This document shows, piece by piece, positions 7,979 to 29,787 of a stretch of 32,000 nucleotides of DNA (the first letter of the stretch is position 1; the number at the start of each line of letters is the position of its first letter). The position numbers were made by a program, and so were the translations under genes. The stretch is taken from positions 6,090,001 to 6,122,000 of the forward strand of contig NZ_RSDW01000001.1 in assembly GCF_003945235.1 (NCBI RefSeq). Reading direction: 5' to 3'. The DNA comes from Edaphobacter aggregans. GTDB taxonomy: Bacteria; Acidobacteriota; Terriglobia; Terriglobales; Acidobacteriaceae. The notes beneath the pieces are model-generated. The model ran no database searches, was not told where the DNA came from, and saw nothing but the letters and a program-made list of their open reading frames with translations.

Positions 7979-8569
7979 ATGAGCGCAGGTATAGAGCTGT
8001 GGCTGGTGAGGCATGGGGAGACGGAGTGGAGTCTCAGTGGGAAGCATACGAGCCGGACGGATATTTCGCTGACGGATCAGGGGCGGAAGAGGGCGGAGAG
8101 GCTGCGGGATTATTTGAAAGGCACCAAGTTTGACGCGGTGTTTGAAAGTCCGATGCAGCGGGCGCGGGAGACTTGTGCGATTGCGGGGTTTGGTTCGCAG
8201 GCGGTTGTCGACGATGGGCTGATGGAATGGGACTACGGGGTGTATGAGGGGCGGACTACGAAGGAGATTCAGGCGGAGATACCGGGGTGGTCGGTTTGGG
8301 TGAATGAGATTGTTGGGGGAGAGACGGTCGAGCATGTGGGGGAGCGGGCGGATGGGGTGATTGCGCGGGCTTTGGCGGCTGCTCCTGCTGGGGGGAAGGT
8401 GGCGCTGTTTGCTCATGCGCATATTCTGCGGATTCTGGCGGCGCGGTGGATTGGGTTGGAGGCTTGTGCGGGGAGTTTGTTTGCGCTGGGGACGGGGAGC
8501 GTCAGTGTGTTGGGGTGGGAGCGGGAGACTCGGGTGATTGAGGCTTGGAATCGCGGCTTCGAGAAGTAG
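7979..8569 (+). CDS. Histidine phosphatase (PGAM-like) family protein
   Basis: 196 aa. LVRHGETEWS catalytic RHG motif, ESPMQRARET, and a second His in FAHAHILR. Confidence 0.85.
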   Translation: MSAGIELWLVRHGETEWSLSGKHTSRTDISLTDQGRKRAERLRDYLKGTKFDAVFESPMQRARETCAIAGFGSQAVVDDGLMEWDYGVYEGRTTKEIQAEIPGWSVWVNEIVGGETVEHVGERADGVIARALAAAPAGGKVALFAHAHILRILAARWIGLEACAGSLFALGTGSVSVLGWERETRVIEAWNRGFEK

Positions 8570-9839
8570 GGTGTTTGCGGGCGCTTAGGCGTTGAGAGCG
8601 GTAGATGCCGTGGTGTCCGCTGAAGAGGTAGCTGGTGACACAGGCGATGGCGGCGAAGGCTCCAGCTTCGGGACCGAAGAGTTCGATGGCCATGAGGCTG
8701 GCGGCGATGGGGGTGTTGGCGGCTCCGGAGAAGACGGCTGCGAAGCCCATCGCTGCGAGTAGCGATGCCGACAGTGGGAGGATGCTTGAGAGGGCGTTTC
8801 CGAGTGTGGCTCCGATGAAGAAGAGTGGGGTGACTTCGCCTCCTTTGAAGCCGGCTCCGAGAGTGAGGCTGGTGAATGCGAATTTGGCGGCGAAGTCGTA
8901 GCGAGGGAGATGCTGCGAGAAGGCCGCGACAATAGTGGGGATGCCGAGTCCGATGTATTTTGTCGTGCCGATGGCGAAGACGGCGAGAGCAACGAGGATG
9001 CCTCCGGTGAAGGGGCGTAGGGGTGGGTAGGGTATGGCGCGGCGGAAGAGGTGGGAGATGGCGTGAGTGCAACGGGCGAAGAGGAGGGCGGTGAGGCCGA
9101 AGGCGATTCCGGCGGCTACGGCTGAGAGCATGGTGGTGGGGTTGAGGGGGGATAGCTGCGTGACGGTGTACTGGGTGTGGTGGATGTGCCAGAGGTGCGC
9201 GGTGGTGTAGTCACCGACGAAGGCGGCGATGAAACAGGGGAAGATGGCATCGTAGCCTACGTTGCCGATGGTGAGGACCTCGAGGCCGAAGACTGCTCCT
9301 GCGAGTGGGGTGTCGAAGACGGAGCCGAAGCCGGCGCTGATGCCTGCCATGAGGAGGGCTCGGCGGTCATGCTCGGAGAAGCGAAAGGGGAGACGGCGAA
9401 GGAGGCGGGTGATCTGGTCGGCGAGAGCGGCTCCGGTTTGGATGGCGGTGCCTTCGCGACCGGCGGAGCCTCCGAAGAGGTGGGTGATGGTGGTGCCGAG
9501 GAGGATGAGCGGCGTCATGCGGGCTGGGATTGTGGTGCGAGGGACGTGCGGGTCGGTGCTGATGTCGGTGTGGATCTCGTCGAGGATGAGGTTGTGTCCG
9601 CCTTCGACGGAGCGACCGAGATAGTGATAGATGAGGCCTACGGCGAGACCGGCGAGAGGGAGCAGGCCGATGAGCCAGCGGTGGGCTTCGCGGGTGTCGG
9701 TGGCCCAGTCGAGGGAGAGGAGAAGGATGGCGGAGGCGGAGCCGGCGAGGAGTCCGACCAGAGTGGAGAGCAGGAGCCAGCGGAGGGTGTGGCGGATGAG
9801 GGACAGACGTTGAATGAGGGCGTGGAGTTGAAGCGGCAA
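8502..9839 (-). CDS. CLC-family channel, probable CLC-F fluoride/proton antiporter
   Basis: ORF 8502..10571 trimmed to TTG 9839 (GGAGG just upstream). 445 aa. GGSAGREGT (gating Glu, Thr instead of canonical Pro), EGGHNLI in place of GSGIP, and GFKGGEVTP. It sits directly behind a fluoride riboswitch. The clade-specific motif assignment is from memory. Confidence 0.85.
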   Translation of the reverse strand: MPLQLHALIQRLSLIRHTLRWLLLSTLVGLLAGSASAILLLSLDWATDTREAHRWLIGLLPLAGLAVGLIYHYLGRSVEGGHNLILDEIHTDISTDPHVPRTTIPARMTPLILLGTTITHLFGGSAGREGTAIQTGAALADQITRLLRRLPFRFSEHDRRALLMAGISAGFGSVFDTPLAGAVFGLEVLTIGNVGYDAIFPCFIAAFVGDYTTAHLWHIHHTQYTVTQLSPLNPTTMLSAVAAGIAFGLTALLFARCTHAISHLFRRAIPYPPLRPFTGGILVALAVFAIGTTKYIGLGIPTIVAAFSQHLPRYDFAAKFAFTSLTLGAGFKGGEVTPLFFIGATLGNALSSILPLSASLLAAMGFAAVFSGAANTPIAASLMAIELFGPEAGAFAAIACVTSYLFSGHHGIYRSQRLSARKHPTSRSRDSKPQSPESPAPTPTH

Positions 9840-9843
9840 AGGG

Positions 9844-9911
9844 CCTCCTACAGAGTCGTAGGAGTCATCAGCACCGGGTTTGGCCGGGCGGTTCAGGCGA
9901 ACTCCATCACC
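9844..9911 (-). promoter_or_regulatory. Fluoride riboswitch (crcB motif) with SD-sequestering expression platform
   Basis: The minus-strand RNA GGUGAUGGAGUUCGCCUGAACCGCCCGGCCAAACCCGGUGCUGAUGACUCCUAC matches the crcB-motif pattern (P1 GGUG/CGCC, GGAGU/ACUCC pseudoknot, conserved AAC, CUGAUGA, CUAC). It is followed by the CUCCUAC-GACUCU-GUAGGAG hairpin covering the SD. Confidence 0.85.
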
Positions 9912-9927
9912 TTGAAGATGTATTGGT

Positions 9928-9956
9928 AGGGTAGCAAGCGGTGGAATGTGGGTCAA
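9928..9956 (-). promoter_or_regulatory. Candidate sigma70-type promoter of the riboswitch-CLC transcript
   Basis: Minus strand TTGACC (9956..9951), 17 nt, TACCCT (9933..9928), about 16 nt upstream of the aptamer. Confidence 0.5.
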
Positions 9957-10027
9957 AAGGAATTTGCGATTGTGGTCGTGATTTTGCTGTCCCCTAGAGT
10001 GGGCTTTATAAAGGCGAGATGCACGCC

Positions 10028-11251
10028 CTAGTGGGGTTGGATGTGTTCGGGGCGGACTCCCATGCCGATGAATCGGGCGAGGAGGCGGCGGAAGAATGGG
10101 TGAGGGGAAAGGATGCGGAGGATGGGGGGTGGCTTGATTGGGGCTGGGTCGCCGAGGGTCTTTGAGAGGAAGCCGTGGACTATGGCCTGAAAGGATTGGG
10201 TGATGCGGGTGGGGAGTTCGCGGCGGTGCTGGATTCGTTCGAGGGTGAGTTCGGTGACGATGCTGGTGGAGAGAACCGGTGAAAGGATTCGGGCGGCGGC
10301 TACGGCGTCCTGAATGGCGAGGTTGATGCCGATGCCTCCGACAGGGGACATGGCGTGGGCGGCGTCGCCGATGCAAAGGAGGCCGGGGCGGTGCCAGCGG
10401 GTGAGGCGGTTGATCTGGACGGAGAGAAGCTTGACCTGATCCCAGTCGGTGACCTCGTCTACGCGGTCGGCAAGAGAGGGAACAAGACGGGCGATACAGG
10501 CGCGGAAGGCGGGAAGGCCGGCGGGCTGGATCGAGGTAGTGAAGCTGTCTTTGGCGATGAGGAAGGCGCACTGAAAGTAGTCGTCGCGAGGGATGAGGAC
10601 GGCGAAGGTGCCGTAGTTGGCGTTACCGAGGACGTTGGAGGGGTCGGTTTCATCGCGGCGCAGGCGGAACCAGAGAACGTCGATGGGGACTCCGGTCTCG
10701 TGGAGCGGTAGTCCAGAGGCGGCTCGAGAGATGGAGTGACGACCGTCGCAGCCTACGACAAGGGTAGCGTGAATTTCGGTGGGACCGGAGGGGGTGTTGG
10801 CGCGGACGCCTATGACGCAGTGGCTGTCGTTTTCTATGAGGTCGGTGACCTCGTGCTCCATGAGGAGGTGGAAAGTGGGGAACTTTGCTGCCTGTGAGGC
10901 GAGGAAGTTGAGGAAGTCCCACTGGGGCATGAGAGCGACGAATTTTGAGTGAGTGGGAAGATGGGTGAGGTCGGCTATGGGGAAGTATTCGCCGCCGATG
11001 GCGAGGGTGAACGCGGAGATCTGCTGATGGGGAAGAGCCAGGAAGGCGTCGAGGATGCCTAGCTCGTACATGAGTTCGAGGGTGGAGGGGTGGATGGTGT
11101 CGCCGCGGAAGTCTCGGAAGAAGTCTTTGTGCTTTTCGAGGACGGTGACGTGGTGGCCGTCGCGGGCGAGGAGGTAGCCGAGCATCATGCCAGCGGGGCC
11201 TCCGCCTACGATGCAGCATGTGGTTTGGAGTGCTGGCGTGGCGGTGGCCAT
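10028..11251 (-). CDS. FAD-dependent monooxygenase (UbiH/PheA-type)
   Basis: ATG 11251 chosen (the track starts at 11338). 407 aa. Dinucleotide fold CCIVGGGPAGMMLGYLLA...VTVLEK, VGCDGRHS, and GDAAHAMSPVGGIGINLAIQDA. Confidence 0.85.
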   Translation of the reverse strand: MATATPALQTTCCIVGGGPAGMMLGYLLARDGHHVTVLEKHKDFFRDFRGDTIHPSTLELMYELGILDAFLALPHQQISAFTLAIGGEYFPIADLTHLPTHSKFVALMPQWDFLNFLASQAAKFPTFHLLMEHEVTDLIENDSHCVIGVRANTPSGPTEIHATLVVGCDGRHSISRAASGLPLHETGVPIDVLWFRLRRDETDPSNVLGNANYGTFAVLIPRDDYFQCAFLIAKDSFTTSIQPAGLPAFRACIARLVPSLADRVDEVTDWDQVKLLSVQINRLTRWHRPGLLCIGDAAHAMSPVGGIGINLAIQDAVAAARILSPVLSTSIVTELTLERIQHRRELPTRITQSFQAIVHGFLSKTLGDPAPIKPPPILRILSPHPFFRRLLARFIGMGVRPEHIQPH

Positions 11252-17091: not shown

Positions 17092-17982
17092 TTAGAAGGC
17101 GTATCCGAAGCCGATGGAGAAAATGGGGAAGAAGGAAGCGTAGCTGAGGTTGTTGTTGTTGCGTGCGATGAAGGCTGCAAGGTTTTTCTGGAACGACGGA
17201 TCCTGGCTGACGGATTGGCATCCGACCGATGCGGGAAAGACAGGATCGCAGGCGCTGCCGGTGAAGTTGACCTGCAGGTTCGGTTGACCTACGTAGTAGA
17301 AGCCGAGCTCGATTGGGATGCTGAGACGGCTGCGGGTACGCGGAATGATGTTTCCGAGGCCGAGCGTGAAGCCGGGGGAGACTCTGCGGAAGTCGATACG
17401 TCCGTTGCCGTGTAGTGGATCGGTGAAGCTGCTGACGTAGTCGTTGCCGTTGAGGGTGATGGCGCTGCCGGAGGGGATGAGGGCGGTTGCGAGGATTCGG
17501 TTGTTATTGGCGAAGACAAGCAGCGGGCTGAGACGGAAGCGGCCGTTGAAAGGGAACCAGTCGAGAGAGGCGCGTCCGGTTTTCATACGGAGATTGATGG
17601 CTACGTTGGCGCCCTGCTGCTGGAAGGCAGTGGCGTAGGAGAAGAAGTCGGCGCCCGCGCGGAGGTTTAATTTTTTGGCCAGAGGTGTGGCGATGTCGAA
17701 ACCTGTGCCAGCGAGTCCTGTGTGCGAGTCGAAGCCTATGGCGGAAAAGGGATGGAAGGTTTTGGGTTTGATGGCGGTGGACGGAGGAAGGGTCACGAAC
17801 GACGTGGGACCGGAGGTTGCATTGGCGTCGGTGCTGGAGCTGAAGGTGCGCATGGCCTCGTCGGCGAGGTTTGCTGTGACCGAGTCGGGGTCAATCAGGT
17901 TCTGTGCGAACACGCATGGGACTGAGAGAAGCATGACGAAGAGCGCTGCGTTCCATGGAGTGATTGGGGATTTCATTTGCAT
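17092..17982 (-). CDS. Outer-membrane beta-barrel protein, family unknown
   Basis: ATG 17982 (or 17976) gives the signal peptide MKSPITPWNAALFVMLLSVPCVFAQ. Alternating beta-strand pattern, and a C-terminal FSIGFGYAF with terminal Phe typical of BAM substrates. Confidence 0.7.
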   Translation of the reverse strand: MQMKSPITPWNAALFVMLLSVPCVFAQNLIDPDSVTANLADEAMRTFSSSTDANATSGPTSFVTLPPSTAIKPKTFHPFSAIGFDSHTGLAGTGFDIATPLAKKLNLRAGADFFSYATAFQQQGANVAINLRMKTGRASLDWFPFNGRFRLSPLLVFANNNRILATALIPSGSAITLNGNDYVSSFTDPLHGNGRIDFRRVSPGFTLGLGNIIPRTRSRLSIPIELGFYYVGQPNLQVNFTGSACDPVFPASVGCQSVSQDPSFQKNLAAFIARNNNNLSYASFFPIFSIGFGYAF

Positions 17983-18231
17983 GCCGCCTGTCTTTGTCGA
18001 GAGATGTTTGAGCGTGAAGGTCTGCTTGTTTTTCTCTATCGGCAAGAGGCTTCGAGAGTGCAGGGGGAAGGGAAGAACGGCGTGCGATTCCCATTTTGAA
18101 ATTGAGACATGCAAAAAACTCGTGTAGAGGGTTGTGTGCGCGGGGGTCTATGCACCAAGGTAATAGGACGCCACCGACAATGGTCACGTGACGACGGTGC
18201 AATTTGCGATGGCGTGATCGAGGAGATAGGA

Positions 18232-18978
18232 ATGCGGGTTCTGATTGTTGAAGATGATGCGGCTCTGGGGTTATTTCTGCAGAAGGGTTTGAAGCTGGAA
18301 GGACATGAGGTTGCATGGGTGGGCGATGGAGTTGCTGCGCTGGAGCAGGTTGAGGCGCTTCAGCCCGACCTGATGGTTTTGGATTTGAGTCTGCCTCGCA
18401 AGGATGGGACTGAGGTGCTCGAAGGGATGCGCGGAAAGTATGACGACACGGCTGTACTGGTGTTGACGGGCCGAAGCATGGTGGAAGAGCGAGTGCGGTG
18501 CTTGAATTTGGGCGCGGATGATTGTCTGTTGAAACCGTTCAGCTTTCATGAACTTACGGCTCGGTGCAGAGCTTTGTTGCGGCGGCGGGAGCGGTTTGCC
18601 GATCCGGTGTTGCGACATGGAGATGTGGAGTTGAACCGCATGGAGCGGAGAGTGAGTCGCAATGGCCGTACGGTGGAGTTGACGGCGAAGGAGTTCAGCT
18701 TGCTTGAGTTTCTGATGCAGCGGAAGGGCGGCTGCTGTACTCGTTCGGAGCTGTTGCGAGAGGTTTGGCAGATGTCGCCGGATGCGGGGACGAATGTGGT
18801 GGATGTGTACGTGAATTATCTGCGGAAGAAGTTGGGCGCGGTGAGTGTGGATGAGGATTCGGGTGGCTTGGTGATTGAGACGGTGCGCGGAGAGGGGTAC
18901 CGGATGGGTGGGACTCAAAAGAAGATCACTGCGCGGGTGAGTGCGTATTCGGCTGGCGTGCAGTTGGCGGGGGCTTGA
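18232..18978 (+). CDS. OmpR/PhoB-family response regulator
   Basis: ATG 18232 after AGGAGATAGG. 248 aa. Canonical receiver (EDD, D in VLDLSLP, T in LTG, K in LKPF) plus a winged-helix output domain (ELTAKEFSLLEFL ... VRGEGYR). Confidence 0.92.
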   Translation: MRVLIVEDDAALGLFLQKGLKLEGHEVAWVGDGVAALEQVEALQPDLMVLDLSLPRKDGTEVLEGMRGKYDDTAVLVLTGRSMVEERVRCLNLGADDCLLKPFSFHELTARCRALLRRRERFADPVLRHGDVELNRMERRVSRNGRTVELTAKEFSLLEFLMQRKGGCCTRSELLREVWQMSPDAGTNVVDVYVNYLRKKLGAVSVDEDSGGLVIETVRGEGYRMGGTQKKITARVSAYSAGVQLAGA

Positions 18979-19208
18979 TGGTTTTGGATCAAGAGAGTCT
19001 TGTGGAGCGGATCGACGGAGTGCTGCATGGGCTGTGTCAGCCGCTGACGGTACTGCAGTGCAGGCTGGCGCTCGGAGAGTTGAGCGGCGAGCCGGGAGCT
19101 ATGCGTGAAGCGATTGGTGAAGCTTTGGGTGAGTGCGCTCGTTTGAATGCGGGAGTGAGCGCGATTCGTGAGATGTTGCGTCAGGCAATGGGAGTTGAGG
19201 AGAGCTAA
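18978..19208 (+). CDS. 76-aa stand-alone DHp (HisKA-like) two-helix protein
   Basis: The start ATG shares its A with the upstream TGA, and the stop TAA shares its A with the next ATG. His17 in LHGLCQPLTVLQ resembles the HisKA H-box (hELRTPLt.i). The second helix ALGECARLNAGVSAIREML resembles DHp helix 2. There is no ATPase domain. Confidence 0.55.
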   Translation: MVLDQESLVERIDGVLHGLCQPLTVLQCRLALGELSGEPGAMREAIGEALGECARLNAGVSAIREMLRQAMGVEES

Positions 19209-20512
19209 TGGTCAGCGAGATGATTGTGGGACGGGATGTTGCTCCAGTTGTGATCGATGGGGTTGTGGCGCGTACTGTCGTACTGGCTAGTGCAGATGCG
19301 GGTTTGCGGCAGCGGTTGAGGGCTTCGCTAACCGGGTTGCGCTGGCAGGTGCGTGAGGCTGGTGGTGGGGCAGAAGCTATGGCTCAACTGGATGCTTCGC
19401 AGCCCGAGGCTTTGTTGGTGGATAGCTGGCTGCCGGATCTTGAGGTGGGTGAGTTTGCGGGTCAGATACGGATGCTGTATCCAGGGATGGAATTGCTTCG
19501 GGTGGATGGAGGTGTGGATGGTGCGGCACGGAGTCCCAGGCGGAATGAGTTACTGCATGCTTTGCGGGAGGCCCAGGATGGGGCAGGGAACGACACTGCG
19601 GCTTGGGCTGCGGCTCCGGTTGCAGTACCGAGGAGTGTTGGGCGGGGTTATGGAGGGGCGCAGGAGGCTCCGCGGCAGGTGTTGTCGGTGCTGATGGGAC
19701 GTGAGGAGCTGGTGTGGCAGGAGAGTCCGGCGAGAGTGCAGCCGGTTGTGACTCTGCCTGAGATGGTGGGGGCGAGTGAGGCGATGCAGGAGTTGGCGCG
19801 ATTAATTCGGCTGGTGGCTCCGCGGTCGACTACGGTTTTAATTGAGGGTGAGACGGGTACAGGAAAAGAAGTGGTGGCGAAGGCGATTCATCGATTGAGT
19901 GAGCGGGCGGGGAAGCCGTTTGTGGTGTTGAATTGTGCGGCGATTCCTGAGGCTCTGCTTGAGGCTGAGTTGTTTGGACATACGCGCGGGGCCTTTACTG
20001 GAGCGGTGCAGTCGCGTACGGGACGGATCGAGGCGGCGCATGGCGGAACGCTTTTTTTAGATGAGATTGGCGAGATGCCTTTGGCCTTGCAGGCTAAGAT
20101 GCTGCGCTTTTTAGAGTGTGGGGAGTTGCAGCGGGTTGGCGATAACGAGACGATGCGCGTGGATGTAAGGGTGATTGCGGCGACACATCAACCATTGGAG
20201 CAGCGGGCGGGGGAACGGACGTTTCGGCTGGATCTTTATCATCGGCTGGCGGTGTTTCCGGTGGAGGTGCCAGCGCTGCGGATGCGGATGGAGGATTTGC
20301 GGTTGCTGGCGGAGCATTTTCTGGATTTGATGGGGCAGGAGATGCCTCGGAAGCGGTTGACGATTGAAGCGGAGGCTCGGCTGTACGAGCATAGCTGGCC
20401 GGGAAATGTGAGGGAGCTAATGCATGTGCTGGAGCGTGGGGCGATTCTGGCGGGGGATCGGATGGAGATTGGGGCGGAGGAGATACGGTTTCGGCGTGCT
20501 ACTCGGGGTTAA
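19208..20512 (+). CDS. Sigma54-dependent activator (bEBP) lacking a C-terminal DNA-binding domain, FlgR-like architecture
   Basis: 434 aa. Short atypical receiver-like N-domain (D in LLVDSWLPD) and an AAA+ sigma54-interaction core (GETGTGKE, GAFTGA, LFLDEIGE, GNVREL). The protein ends ~28 aa after GNVREL, so there is no room for a Fis-type HTH. Confidence 0.88.
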   Translation: MVSEMIVGRDVAPVVIDGVVARTVVLASADAGLRQRLRASLTGLRWQVREAGGGAEAMAQLDASQPEALLVDSWLPDLEVGEFAGQIRMLYPGMELLRVDGGVDGAARSPRRNELLHALREAQDGAGNDTAAWAAAPVAVPRSVGRGYGGAQEAPRQVLSVLMGREELVWQESPARVQPVVTLPEMVGASEAMQELARLIRLVAPRSTTVLIEGETGTGKEVVAKAIHRLSERAGKPFVVLNCAAIPEALLEAELFGHTRGAFTGAVQSRTGRIEAAHGGTLFLDEIGEMPLALQAKMLRFLECGELQRVGDNETMRVDVRVIAATHQPLEQRAGERTFRLDLYHRLAVFPVEVPALRMRMEDLRLLAEHFLDLMGQEMPRKRLTIEAEARLYEHSWPGNVRELMHVLERGAILAGDRMEIGAEEIRFRRATRG

Positions 20513-20519
20513 TTTTTTT

Positions 20520-20640
20520 AGGTTTTTTTGAGATGGGTTTTGAGGGAAATTGGCCGTAAAACATGGTGTTTTGGTGGTTAGGTTGTGGTGAAAAGCGTGG
20601 TAATGGTGGTTGGTTGATGGGTGTTGTTTTCGGATCTTAG
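20520..20640. repeat. Diverged partial copy of repeat family A (copy 3)
   Basis: GGTGTTTTGGTGGTtaggttGtGGTgAAAAGcGTGGtaa... aligns with GGTGTTTTGGTGGTctgttaGcGGTaAAAAGtGTGGcta... of copy 2, in the same orientation. Similarity is clearly lower than between copies 1 and 2. Confidence 0.55.
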
Positions 20641-20716
20641 CGACCTTGTGCGGAATGATTATGTCGTGTCGGATTCTTGTGTGGCTCCCTTGGGCAGTCT
20701 TGATTGGGATAGGAGA

Positions 20717-21118
20717 GCATACCCCAGGGGTTGAAGCCCCTTTCCCGCAGTTGGTGGAGAGGCCAAGGCTGAAGCCTTGGCGTACCTAGAAGCGACGGCA
20801 AAAGCTGTCCCGGCGGCAATAACAGACGCAGGTTCCTCCGGGATGACAAGGCAACAGCAGCGACAGAAGCAGATCCTCCGCCTTCGGCGAAGGATGACAA
20901 GCAAGAAAAGCAAGAGCAAAACAACTGCAACGGCAAGAGCAACAGCAAATGCGGGGGTCTCTCCACTACGGCGGCAAAAGCACCGCCTTCGGTCGAGATG
21001 ACGAGTTTTGTTGGTTGAGCTGAAGAAACCGGGACAGAGACAAAAAGCAGATCCCTACGGGATGACAACCAGAAGGACAAAGGCAAAAGCAACGACAAAG
21101 GCAGATGCAACGGAAACG
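20717..21118. repeat. Mosaic repeat block (family D module plus three family C hairpin/array units and one Ala-rich hairpin unit)
   Basis: The D module 20717..20793 (GCATACCCCAGGGG ... GCCAAGGC-tgaa-GCCTTGGC ... TACCTAGAAGC) recurs at 22444..22523. It is followed by hairpin-GATGACAA(G/C) cores at ~20831, ~20871 and ~21049, separated by CAA/AAG/GCA-type triplet arrays. Confidence 0.85.
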
Positions 21119-21158
21119 ATGGTGGATAAGAGCGCTCTCATTTGAGGGCGCTTTTGTT

Positions 21159-21174
21159 TGGGCTTTGGGGTGCA
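21159..21174 (+). promoter_or_regulatory. Candidate sigma54 -24/-12 promoter upstream of flgB
   Basis: TGGGCTTTGGGGTGCA. GG (21160-21161) and GC (21172-21173) have the canonical 12-nt register of TGGCAC-N5-TTGCA. It lies 22 nt upstream of the flgB ATG. This is the weakest of the three candidates. Confidence 0.4.
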
Positions 21175-21195
21175 TGGGTGGGGGCGGAGGTTTCT

Positions 21196-21552
21196 ATGCA
21201 AGTGGCTACTCCCTTGAGCGATGCGCTGGGACGGTATCTGGATCTGACGAGTGAGCAGATGAAGTTGACGGCCAGCAATATGGCCAATGTCGACACGCCT
21301 GGATTCAAGACGCAGGGTTTTGATTTTGAGCAGGAGTTTGCGCGGCAGTTGCAGAGCGGCGCGGATGCTGTTGATTTGGCGCAGGCGCAGGAGGTCGATG
21401 GGTTGGTGGCTCGGCCGGATGGGAACAATGTGTCGATGGATCGGGAAGGGATGCAGCTGGCGAAGTCGCAGTTGCAGTTCCGGATGGGCGTGGAGTTGTT
21501 GAAGCATGAGTTTTCGAGCGTGATGAGTGCGATCCATGCGGAGGCGAAGTAA
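21196..21552 (+). CDS. flgB: Flagellar basal-body rod protein FlgB
   Basis: ATG 21196 after GGCGGAGG. 118 aa. LTASNMANVDTPGFK rod N-terminal motif. First gene of the cluster. Confidence 0.88.
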   Translation: MQVATPLSDALGRYLDLTSEQMKLTASNMANVDTPGFKTQGFDFEQEFARQLQSGADAVDLAQAQEVDGLVARPDGNNVSMDREGMQLAKSQLQFRMGVELLKHEFSSVMSAIHAEAK

Positions 21553-28030: not shown

Positions 28031-28047
28031 TACTTTTCCCAATTCTT

Positions 28048-28063
28048 TGGCATGTTGAGTGCA
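28048..28063 (+). promoter_or_regulatory. Candidate sigma54 -24/-12 promoter upstream of fliK (internal to cluster)
   Basis: TGGCATGTTGAGTGCA fits TGGCAC-N5-TTGCA, with GG (28049-28050) and GC (28061-28062) in exact register. SD CAGGAGAGG at 28081..28089 and ATG at 28096 follow at a sensible distance. Confidence 0.6.
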
Positions 28064-28095: not shown

Positions 28096-29787
28096 ATGTT
28101 GACTGCTGGAATCGCGATGGTGGGTGGCGGGCAGGGAAAGTCGCTTCTGTTGCCGGCTGCTTCGGGTGAAGGGCAAGAGGGTCAAGGAGCGTTTGCCGAG
28201 GGATTCTTTACGAAGAGCGTGGATGAATTGATGGGAGGCTCTGCTGGGACTAAGGCGCAGCTGAGTACGGAGCAGTCGGTAGCTAGCCCTGAGAAAAAAG
28301 ATGTGATGGCTGCGAAGGATTTGGCCGAGACGGGAACAAAGGCCTCTGCCGGTGGCGAGATATCTGTGAGTGCTGGATTGCCGATTGCAGTTGCGGCGAA
28401 TGTGTCGATCACTTTCGGTGGTGAAGGCTTGCCGGTACCGCAGACAACGAGAGGACTGGATCAGTCTGTCAAAGAGGCCTTGGTCTCTTCTCCGGCATCA
28501 GGTGATGTTGAGAAGGCTGTTGGAGGTGAGACTCCAATAGAAAATGCAAATGAATTGAAGGGGAGTGCTGCGACTGTCGGTGCACCGCAGCAGAGTTCGC
28601 TTGTTGTGGGTGGCCTCTCGACGGGAAAAGGGATTGCGCAGGTTGCAGCAAATGCGACGTTTGTTTCGAAAGAGGTGACGAACGGAGAGAAGATTCGGAC
28701 GACAGCGGAACACGCGGCGGAGACGAAGCGAGAGACAAAAAAGAAGGGAAGTGAGCCGTCGATTGATGTAGACGCAAAGACGGCGGTATCTAGCGTGGAT
28801 ACATCTTTGTTACCACAGGATATTGGAACAGCGACGTTATCTCCGGCGGCAGTCCTTCCTGTGAGTGTCAATGTTCTGGCTGTTTCGAAGGTGGAGACGG
28901 GTGTGGCTTCTGCTAAGAATTCTCGCGTTGGTTCCGTTGGATGGAAGGCAAACGTGGGAATTGCTGCTAACGATGTTAAGGGTGGTGTCGAACGCGAGAA
29001 AGAAATGGTTACGGCTTTTGCTACGACGAATGCTGTTGGAATTCACAGTGCTGTCGGACATTCTCCAAATGCTGAAGCAGTGGGTTCGAAAACGGAGGTT
29101 TTGTCGACGCCAGGGAGCGGAGGGGCTGGGGCGAAGCTAGAGGGCACCGGTGCGATGGTTGCGGCTGCGGGCGTTCCAGTTGCAGTTGTCGATGGCTCTA
29201 GTGTTCAGGGCGTCGTCGTACAGAAGCACTCGAGCGTGTTGGGGAATGATGGCGGACTGCGGGCGGATACAGTGGATGCTGCGGCGACTCAGTCGCAGGG
29301 AGCATCAGGTGGAGATGCTGTGTTGGTAAATGATGGACACACAATGCTGAAGGCCACTCCCACATCGCTGGAGGTTGGGGTTTCGAATGGAAGCCATGGG
29401 TGGTTGAAGATTCGCGCAGAGCTGACGGATGGCGGCGCGGTGAATGCATCGGTGTTCGCGGCGTCTTCTGCGGGACAGGAGATGCTGCATCGGGAGTTAC
29501 CTTCGCTGACTGCTTATCTGCAGGCAGAACGGTTGGGCGTGAACACGGTTGTTGTTCATGCGGCTACTGCGACGACTGATTCGCGCGACTTTTCGGAAGC
29601 TTTGAGCCGTGGCGATCAGAGGGATCAGACAAAGCAGGGTAGTAGCGGCGATGCTCGACAGGGTTGGACGGCGGATGAGCCGGTGTCTTTTGCAGGGCTC
29701 GAAGGAGCGGACGTGGATGCGCATTCTTCGACGATGTATGGGGAAGGAGGTTCCGGCGGCGGAGGTTGGTTGAGTGTGCGGGCCTGA
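28096..29787 (+). CDS. fliK: Flagellar hook-length control protein FliK
   Basis: 563 aa. Low-complexity Ala/Gly/Val/Ser-rich N-terminal ~400 aa and a C-terminal Flg_hook-type domain (LEVGVSNGSHGWLKIRAEL..GAVNASVFAASSAGQEMLHRELPSLTAYLQAERLGV). Confidence 0.8.
   Translation: MLTAGIAMVGGGQGKSLLLPAASGEGQEGQGAFAEGFFTKSVDELMGGSAGTKAQLSTEQSVASPEKKDVMAAKDLAETGTKASAGGEISVSAGLPIAVAANVSITFGGEGLPVPQTTRGLDQSVKEALVSSPASGDVEKAVGGETPIENANELKGSAATVGAPQQSSLVVGGLSTGKGIAQVAANATFVSKEVTNGEKIRTTAEHAAETKRETKKKGSEPSIDVDAKTAVSSVDTSLLPQDIGTATLSPAAVLPVSVNVLAVSKVETGVASAKNSRVGSVGWKANVGIAANDVKGGVEREKEMVTAFATTNAVGIHSAVGHSPNAEAVGSKTEVLSTPGSGGAGAKLEGTGAMVAAAGVPVAVVDGSSVQGVVVQKHSSVLGNDGGLRADTVDAAATQSQGASGGDAVLVNDGHTMLKATPTSLEVGVSNGSHGWLKIRAELTDGGAVNASVFAASSAGQEMLHRELPSLTAYLQAERLGVNTVVVHAATATTDSRDFSEALSRGDQRDQTKQGSSGDARQGWTADEPVSFAGLEGADVDAHSSTMYGEGGSGGGGWLSVRA

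Follow-up and report, generated by a model that had tools for sequence, protein, structure and literature searches.

A predicted stand-alone DHp protein between two regulators at a conserved flagellar locus of Acidobacteriaceae

Phosphotransferases derived from the dimerisation and histidine phosphotransfer (DHp) domain of histidine kinases are established in ChpT (PMC3433190) and PhyT (PMC5898713), and ChpT relays phosphate to the OmpR-family regulator CtrA and to a second receiver protein (PMC3433190; PMC12471899). In flagellar control, FlgR of Helicobacter pylori is an enhancer-independent sigma-54 activator of the middle flagellar genes that has an N-terminal receiver and lacks a DNA-binding domain (PMC9696931). 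Kinase-like proteins without a HisKA or HATPase domain are classified in P2CS as incomplete histidine kinases (iHKs; bioRxiv 10.64898/2026.02.27.708494). Our literature search found no characterised protein that consists of the DHp hairpin only, no study of the protein family described here and no paper on flagellar regulation in Acidobacteria. Here, we analysed a stretch of 32,000 nucleotides from Edaphobacter aggregans (contig NZ_RSDW01000001.1, positions 6,090,001 to 6,122,000; hereafter the window), in which an open reading frame (ORF) for a protein of 76 amino acids, here called S, lies between the genes for a predicted OmpR/PhoB-type response regulator (RR) and for a sigma-54 activator of the bacterial enhancer-binding protein class (EBP), upstream of a flagellar gene cluster. 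The results suggest that S is a free-standing DHp domain and, tentatively, a minimal histidine phosphotransferase.

The three genes are all on the forward strand. RR occupies 18232..18978 (ATG at 18232, TGA at 18976-18978), S occupies 18978..19208 (ATG at 18978, TAA at 19206-19208) and EBP, of 434 amino acids, occupies 19208..20512 (ATG at 19208). Stop and start codons overlap by one nucleotide at both junctions, as TGATG at 18976-18980 between RR and S and as TAATG at 19206-19210 between S and EBP, and the three genes use three different reading frames. The first-pass annotation of this DNA, made from the letters alone, had described this chain and its 76-residue middle product with exact coordinates, and it had also reported that no histidine kinase is encoded in the window. 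The latter claim was borne out, as Pfam scans of the large ORFs gave no HATPase_c match, and tblastn searches of the window with the cytoplasmic region of EnvZ and with a full-length Acidobacteriaceae histidine kinase (from locus L148) returned nothing at E<=0.01. With the same two queries, just one of 61 related loci proved to contain a kinase.

The first-pass annotation had read S as a HisKA-type DHp domain without an ATP-binding domain, with His17 (codon CAT at 19026-19028) in an H-box-like sequence, and had proposed a profile search. Window S itself has no Pfam match even at E<=10, and none in NCBIfam. When 130 diverse relatives of S were scanned against Pfam one by one at E<=10, 102 matched HisKA (PF00512) and 23 matched HisKA_3, while no other family was matched by more than five members. 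The best HisKA match, that of the relative P0131, scored 30.9 bits (E=2.8e-7), which is above the gathering score of 26.9 bits; several other relatives scored 18-24 bits, under this cut-off. In every reported match the family histidine falls at position 11 of the HisKA profile, which is also the position of H243 of EnvZ and H213 of PhoR from E. coli K-12. In addition, alignment of the S family profile with the PhoR DHp domain by hhalign gave a probability of 90% and E=1.6e-6, with LHGLCQPLTVLQCRLALGE aligned with SHELRTPLTVLQGYLEMMN. AlphaFold2 (AF2) predicted the S monomer to be a helical hairpin with helices at residues 2-31 and 39-75 (pLDDT 81.7). Taken together, these results uphold the earlier reading and indicate from sequence that S is a stand-alone HisKA-type DHp domain, a divergent member of the HisKA superfamily. 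Since the window copy is unmatched and the members of its family are matched, its membership rests on transitivity.

The H-box of window S reads L16-H17-G-L-C-Q21-P22-L23-T24, and the signature of the family is L-H-[DEG..]-[LM]-C-Q-P-L-T-x-L-Q-C-R-L-E/A-x-G. We also followed the histidine through the family, as had been proposed for His17. Among the full-length representatives that retain the H-box, it is replaced just once (by Gln in P0167), and the glutamine four residues after it (H+4) is also lost once (to Arg in P0129, which carries other deviations as well), which suggests decay. Neither Q21 nor the proline at H+5 (P22) varies in the family alignment of 130 sequences, and the residue at H+1 is variable (D, E, G, S, Q, A or N), with Gly in the window clade. 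The kinase/phosphatase motif H-[E/D]-x-x-[T/N], as defined in PMC3510030, is absent from S, which has H-G-L-C-Q in the window and H-[DEGSQAN]-x-x-Q in the family. HATPase_c is likewise absent from the polypeptide, which ends after 76 residues and is followed by EBP in another frame. S has no Pfam match to HPt (PF01627), and it is predicted to have two helices compared to the four-helix bundle of that domain. It also has no match to the SPOB_a and HPTransfase families at E<=10, and it has no C-terminal domain.

The cysteines of S at H+3 and H+11 are mostly conserved and, by helical-periodicity reasoning, would face the same side of the helix as the histidine; redox gating of docking by the conserved cysteines is possible. 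We also considered whether H17, C20, C28 and C53 could make up a metal or Fe-S site. This idea is weakened by the alignment, in which the cysteines are replaceable and the H, Q and P are fixed: in distant members C20 is A, S or V, C28 is F, V or G, and C53 is replaced by other residues. A weak PDB match, with the ferredoxin Bfd (E=0.46), is no better than chance.

Several lines of sequence evidence indicate that the ORF for S is a true gene and is conserved. In a word-indexed search, 861 homologues were recovered, of which those listed are all 68-97 amino acids long, and an exhaustive hidden Markov model (HMM) search over 1.84 billion entries found 347 cluster representatives at E<=1e-3 (50% clustering). 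The best 150 of these 347 representatives are 45-132 amino acids long except one of 298 (P0243), and no full-length kinase is among them. The median pairwise ratio of non-synonymous to synonymous substitution rates (dN/dS) among 60 orthologues is 0.24, and S is present in all 61 recovered species-representative genomes of Acidobacteriaceae, which include Edaphobacter, Tunturiibacter and Granulicella. Because S has more than 800 homologues, a dN/dS of 0.24 and a conserved coupling to its neighbours, it is not a spurious ORF, and the possibility that it is not a gene was discarded. Fusion or frameshifting of S with its neighbours was also ruled out, since the genes are separate ORFs in about 55 of the 61 genomes and lie in three frames. 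Outside the H-box, S evolves faster than its partners: between locus L154 and the window, S is 41% identical, compared to 70% for RR and 71% for EBP. In the databases the window-clade proteins are named hypothetical protein, and some members of a sister clade are named signal transduction histidine kinase (JGI).

The long member P0243, which is metagenomic, has an S-type H-box at residues 45-105 and extends about 190 residues past it. The extension shows faint N-box-like and G-box-like strings by eye and has no Pfam or NCBIfam match; it could be a degenerate catalytic and ATP-binding (CA) domain, and thus a ChpT-like intermediate, or it could be a gene-calling artefact.

The order LexA (reverse strand), RR, S, EBP and flgB-flgC-fliE-fliF was found in all 61 genome loci, so the synteny of the triad with flgB, which had been suggested as a check, is kept throughout the Acidobacteriaceae genomes recovered. 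A 62nd locus, cyanobacterial in origin, matched by chance and was set aside. The order from LexA to flgB is also the same in loci L150 and L154, despite an S identity of 33-41%. The gap between RR and S is -14 to +15 nt in 56 of the 61 loci and that between S and EBP is -11 to +28 nt in 55; the loci outside these ranges look like assembly frameshifts. Because the tight coupling of the three genes recurs in relatives, the arrangement is not due to chance.

The sister clade consists of members with the sequence H-D-L-C-Q-P-L-T, in which S stands in a different context, namely an MFS (major facilitator superfamily) transporter on the reverse strand, RR in some loci, S, EBP in some loci, and the sigma-28 factor gene fliA (TIGR02479, 250 bits). 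Among 32 such loci, RR lies directly upstream of S in 18 and is clearly absent from at least nine of the rest, EBP is found in 12, and FliA is found in nearly all. In two long contigs S and FliA stand alone, with motAB 5 kb away. The H-box is unchanged with or without a flanking RR or EBP. A sigma-54-type element, TGGCC[AC]-N5-GTGCT, precedes fliA in 24 of 30 sister-clade loci, and this conserved promoter implies a sigma-54 to sigma-28 cascade in the sister-clade Acidobacteriaceae. We also observed a conserved TTGAGAGAANNCTAAT about 20 nt 5′ of the fliA element in loci L067-L148 (for example at 7234-7300 in L117 and 7240-7310 in L130). The RR and EBP proteins of flgB-type and fliA-type loci form two clades, with 54-68% identity between them and 64-95% within them. 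The adjacency to fliA raised the idea that S is an anti-sigma-28 factor like FlgM; given that what is conserved at the core of S is a HisKA H-box, this idea was dismissed as the main reading.

The two regulators that flank S differ in their receivers. RR matches Response_reg (5.7e-26) and Trans_reg_C (5.4e-24) in Pfam, and in its receiver E7 is conserved in 99% of 85 orthologues and D8, D9, D51, T79 and K101 in 100%. By sequence, RR is therefore of the OmpR/PhoB type with a canonical receiver that is predicted to be phosphorylatable. Its best NCBIfam match is a CopR/CusR-type subfamily, below the cut-off of the model, and the only NCBIfam match of P0131 is to the DHp region of a CopS/CusS model (E=0.0016). 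Since RR is CopR/CusR-like and this S relative is CopS/CusS DHp-like, there is a weak hint that S may be the remnant of the cognate kinase of RR.

EBP matches Sigma54_activat (PF00158, 2.2e-69) and AAA_lid_14, contains the motifs GETGTGKE, GAFTGA and LFLDEIGE with Walker A and B present, and matches Response_reg only weakly (E=0.006). It has no HTH_8 or other HTH match in Pfam, and the protein ends eight residues past the AAA lid. At residues ~22-134 it carries an atypical receiver, for which the AF2 model of residues 1-185 has the order b1-a1-b2-a2-b3-a3-b4-a5, with helix 4 missing. A Foldseek search with this N-terminal domain gave 304 PDB matches at E<=1e-3, and all the matches listed are receivers. 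Among 88 orthologues, D72, which follows strand 3, is conserved in 100% and D30 in 98%; past D72, residues W74, L75, D77 and L78 are invariant and P76 and E79 are 99% conserved. No equivalents of the receiver Thr and Lys were found. When the same N-terminal domain was used to look for distant ancestors with an RR-kinase-EBP arrangement, only close relatives were recovered, mostly as fragments.

We tentatively favour, at somewhat less than even confidence, the reading that S is a minimal histidine phosphotransferase without a CA domain that is fed by an unlinked kinase. The steps that we infer, from the dimerisation of S and the phosphorylation of His17 through the donor and the direction and targets of transfer to the question of which regulator controls which promoter, would run as follows. 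S would descend from a kinase DHp domain that lost its sensor, linker and CA domains, and its homodimer would form a four-helix bundle that could not phosphorylate itself because it has no CA domain. His17 would be phosphorylated by an unlinked donor, for which a hybrid-kinase receiver is the most plausible candidate, and S would hand its phosphoryl group on to Asp51 of RR, with which it is co-translated, and possibly also to the invariant Asp72 in the degenerate receiver of EBP, at a branch point that would resemble ChpT with CtrA and CpdR. EBP, which lacks a DNA-binding domain, would then activate sigma-54 RNA polymerase at the nearby downstream flgB promoter, and in the sister clade the equivalent promoter would drive fliA.

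The composition of the H-box is consistent with this reading. In CrdS, a HisKA kinase, autokinase activity alone depends on the acidic residue at H+1 and phosphatase activity alone on the Asn/Thr at H+4, and the N375Q variant lost its phosphatase activity and kept about 60% of its kinase activity (PMC3510030). By analogy, the pattern in S would favour a CA-less carrier of phosphohistidine that does not hydrolyse phosphoaspartate: the near-invariant His, the relaxed H+1 and the fixed Gln at H+4 argue for a carrier over a phosphatase or a decoy. A relay is further supported by the canonical receiver of RR, which stands at a locus where no kinase was detected in the window or in 60 of the 61 related loci, by the coupling and synteny that are conserved across S proteins of 33-41% identity, and by the precedent of ChpT and PhyT.

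Several points weigh against a relay through S. The reading rests on sequence and context, and the argument from Gln at H+4 depends on the mutagenesis of one kinase, CrdS. The profile search of the PDB and Foldseek with S gave nothing significant, with kinase DHp domains (SrrB, HK853) at E~1; these fold searches are uninformative because helical hairpins match designed coiled coils. Window S itself goes unmatched in Pfam and NCBIfam. ChpT and Spo0B retain a C-terminal pseudo-CA domain and have ~190-225 amino acids, whereas S has 76 and is a hairpin only. The receiver of EBP, with no helix 4, Thr or Lys, may be non-phosphorylatable. This weakens the proposal of the first-pass annotation that phosphate is shuttled between the two flanking receivers, and so does the finding that sister loci keep the H-box without RR, EBP or both. 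The sister-clade loci that lack RR or EBP also imply that the partners can act in trans and that adjacency alone does not define them.

A different function for the same hairpin would be that of a dedicated phosphatase, in which a DHp-only dimer docks on phosphorylated RR, whose phosphate would come from an unlinked kinase or from acetyl phosphate, removes that phosphate and so sets the off-rate of the flagellar switch, in the way that the isolated DHp domain of a bifunctional kinase might; we regard this as unlikely. The isolated DHp domain of EnvZ reportedly retains phosphatase activity, and the amide at H+4 of S, which is near-invariant, recalls the amides that position the hydrolytic water in CheZ, CheX and NarX. 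A near-invariant His, on the other hand, is not known to be needed by HisKA kinases for phosphatase activity, and in S it is kept in all but one representative, with Gly at H+1 in the window clade. In bifunctional kinases the active site for phosphatase activity is the HisKA H-box (PMC3510030), and the reference list of a review (PMC12471899) includes a study that reports a phosphatase-based mechanism for CopRS of Pseudomonas aeruginosa, the system that RR and S appear to resemble. However, the same substitution at H+4 in CrdS, N375Q, gave no measurable phosphatase activity.

S could also be a non-catalytic adaptor, a symmetric DHp dimer with the receiver of RR bound on one side and the receiver-like domain of EBP on the other, that tethers EBP to DNA-bound RR near the sigma-54 promoter, so that an enhancer-binding protein would be split between polypeptides. 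EBP has no HTH_8 and RR would bring a winged-helix DNA-binding domain, translational coupling links the three genes in almost every flgB-type locus, and the face of EBP around D72 is conserved despite the absent Thr and Lys, which fits docking. We nevertheless consider an adaptor improbable, since FlgR of H. pylori also lacks a DNA-binding domain and works untethered (PMC9696931), S occurs without RR and/or EBP in many fliA-type loci, an adaptor does not need an invariant phospho-acceptor His, and no RR-type direct-repeat site was identified near the flgB promoter. Slightly more doubtful still is a combination of roles, in which the S dimer would be both phosphoryl carrier and bridge, docking RR and EBP on its two faces. 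If this were true, three co-translated polypeptides would divide enhancer binding, phospho-sensing and ATPase remodelling between them, and S would be the founding member of a class of DHp proteins that have a hairpin only and no CA domain, central to an undescribed flagellar circuit of Acidobacteria. We give very little weight to the other suggestion of the first-pass annotation, that S is a DHp decoy which heterodimerises with an unlinked kinase; such a decoy would block the trans-autophosphorylation of that kinase or its docking of RR. Its DHp fold without a CA domain would suit this role, and inhibition by heterodimers between kinases occurs in RetS-GacS. No kinase with a matching DHp domain was evident, however, with none among the best 150 of the 347 representatives; the strict His, Gln at H+4 and Pro at H+5 are unnecessary for dimerisation; and the fast evolution of S outside the H-box is hard to square with co-evolving helical packing against a separate kinase.

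The presumed target of the triad regulators is the flgB operon. The flgB gene (21196..21552, forward strand; Pfam Flg_bb_rod, with flagellar domains downstream) starts at ATG 21196 behind a Shine-Dalgarno sequence, GGAGG at 21186, and is the first gene of flgB-flgC-fliE-fliF-fliG-fliH-fliI, which by Pfam is followed by a FliK-like gene and flgE. The triad had been placed upstream of flgB at about 650 bp; the position holds, and the distance from the EBP stop codon to flgB was measured as ~680 nt. The earlier remark that sigma-54-type promoters occur in the flagellar cluster also finds support, as a conserved GG-N10-GC element precedes flgB. In the window this predicted promoter reads TTGG-N9-TGCAT at 21158..21175 on the forward strand, with the -24 GG at 21160-21161 and the -12 GC at 21172-21173, and it lies 20 nt 5′ of the Shine-Dalgarno sequence and ATG 21196. 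The site was found by cross-genome alignment, which gives the consensus TTnTTTGG-N9-TGCAT, and nearly all loci have it, together with a hairpin, directly 5′ of flgB. Compared to TGGCAC-N5-TTGC the site has four mismatches and was hence missed by a consensus scan that allowed up to two, which found no enrichment of sigma-54 sites (29 found versus 28.9 expected).

Immediately 5′ of this element, at 21128..21159 on the forward strand, lies a conserved stem-loop, AAGAGCGCTCTC-ATTT-GAGGGCGCTTTT, followed by a T-tract. RNA folding of 21118-21165 gave -23.1 kcal/mol (z=-5.55). Across 55 sequences (54 loci and the window) the hairpin has the form AAGAGCGCTCTC-loop-GAGRGCGCTTTT with a T-tract; the loops vary and the stems are kept, with some compensatory changes. 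The hairpin, unreported by a simple scan for terminators, probably serves as the intrinsic terminator of the triad operon. Since the hairpin and the sigma-54-type site lie between EBP and flgB, the triad is probably its own transcription unit that ends just before the flgB promoter. The stem AAGAGCGCTCTC is conserved more strictly than a terminator requires and contains a perfect 10-bp palindrome, AGAGCGCTCT (within 21128-21155), and it may double as a putative protein-binding site ~20-45 nt 5′ of the -24 element.

The distance between the EBP stop codon and flgB is a median of 51 nt in relatives, compared to the ~680 nt of the window and L001. The spacer at 20513-21125 contains degenerate direct repeats, such as GCAG.TCC.C.GGGATGACAA, which occurs twice, and AAGGCAAAAGC-like units, and it appears to be repetitive DNA that was inserted specifically in this lineage; the insertions that L002 and L003 have at this place are even larger. 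On the other side of the triad, LexA is encoded upstream of RR on the opposite strand. A 16-nt element, ATTCCCRTTTTGAAAT, lies at 18087..18102 on the forward strand, about 130 nt 5′ of the RR start, with at least 80% conservation in a 58-locus alignment, and ACCAAGGTAAT at 18154-18164 on the same strand, 3′ of ATTCCCRTTTTGAAAT and 5′ of RR, is conserved in that alignment as well. The two are a candidate promoter/operator of the triad or a candidate control region of the divergent lexA. A 340-aa ORF at 17092-18114 on the reverse strand stands between lexA and RR only in the window, L001 and L014 and is absent from the other 58 loci. It has no Pfam match, a signal-peptide-like N-terminal region and a C-terminus (...GYAF) that resembles that of outer-membrane beta-barrels. 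Since ATTCCCRTTTTGAAAT lies inside the ORF as listed, its translation probably starts later, at the signal-peptide-like MQMKSP...

Two further elements were observed in the window. A second sigma-54-like site, TTGGCATGTTGAGTGCA (TTGGCAT-N5-GTGCA) at 28047-28063 on the forward strand, is a good -24/-12 match in the window sequence; it lies in the gap after 28030, 33 nt 5′ of the FliK-like gene (28096-29787). The other element, at 9852-9920 on the reverse strand, is a fluoride riboswitch (Rfam RF01734, 50.9 bits, E=1.7e-11) that lies just 5′ of the Voltage_CLC domain within ORF 8502-10571 (reverse strand). Since the riboswitch is inside this ORF, the CLC gene probably starts downstream of it, and the pair looks like an ordinary fluoride-resistance unit.

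Acidobacteria are a dominant soil phylum, and this locus gives them a concrete, conserved and testable flagellar circuit, composed of an orphan OmpR-type RR, a putative 76-residue kinase remnant, a sigma-54 activator without a DNA-binding domain and conserved predicted sigma-54 promoters of flgB and fliA. In the wider field of two-component signalling, the locus would be evidence that a DHp hairpin can be maintained by itself as a signalling protein in its own right. From Spo0B and ChpT it had seemed that the pseudo-CA domain is retained, and S would offer the smallest scaffold in nature on which to study His-Asp transfer and partner specificity. The family is also a problem of annotation, as the window clade escapes Pfam and the sister clade is labelled histidine kinase though incapable of kinase activity.

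The locus can be set against systems that have been described. The dimeric proteins ChpT of Caulobacter and Spo0B of Bacillus resemble the proposed role of S in that a kinase-derived DHp hairpin with a phosphorylatable His and no ATP binding relays between receivers; S differs from them, beyond its size, in having no sequence match to their Pfam families. Compared to the DHp domains of CopS, CusS, PhoR and EnvZ (PF00512), S shares the H-box H-x-x-x-x-P-L-T, the second helix and the position of the His, and the OmpR-family RR gene lies immediately 5′ of S as in operons of response regulators and their kinases; it differs from PF00512 kinases in having no transmembrane, HAMP or CA part, Gln instead of Thr/Asn at H+4, and Gly at H+1 in its clade. 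In the FlgS/FlgR system of Helicobacter and Campylobacter the activator also lacks a DNA-binding domain, and EBP likewise adjoins a sigma-54-type flgB promoter. However, FlgS is a complete soluble kinase, whereas here a CA-less DHp protein stands in the place of the kinase, and the receiver of FlgR is canonical, whereas that of EBP has no helix 4 and an extra OmpR-type RR is present. S can also be compared to the iHK class of P2CS, which is a bookkeeping class without an assigned mechanism.

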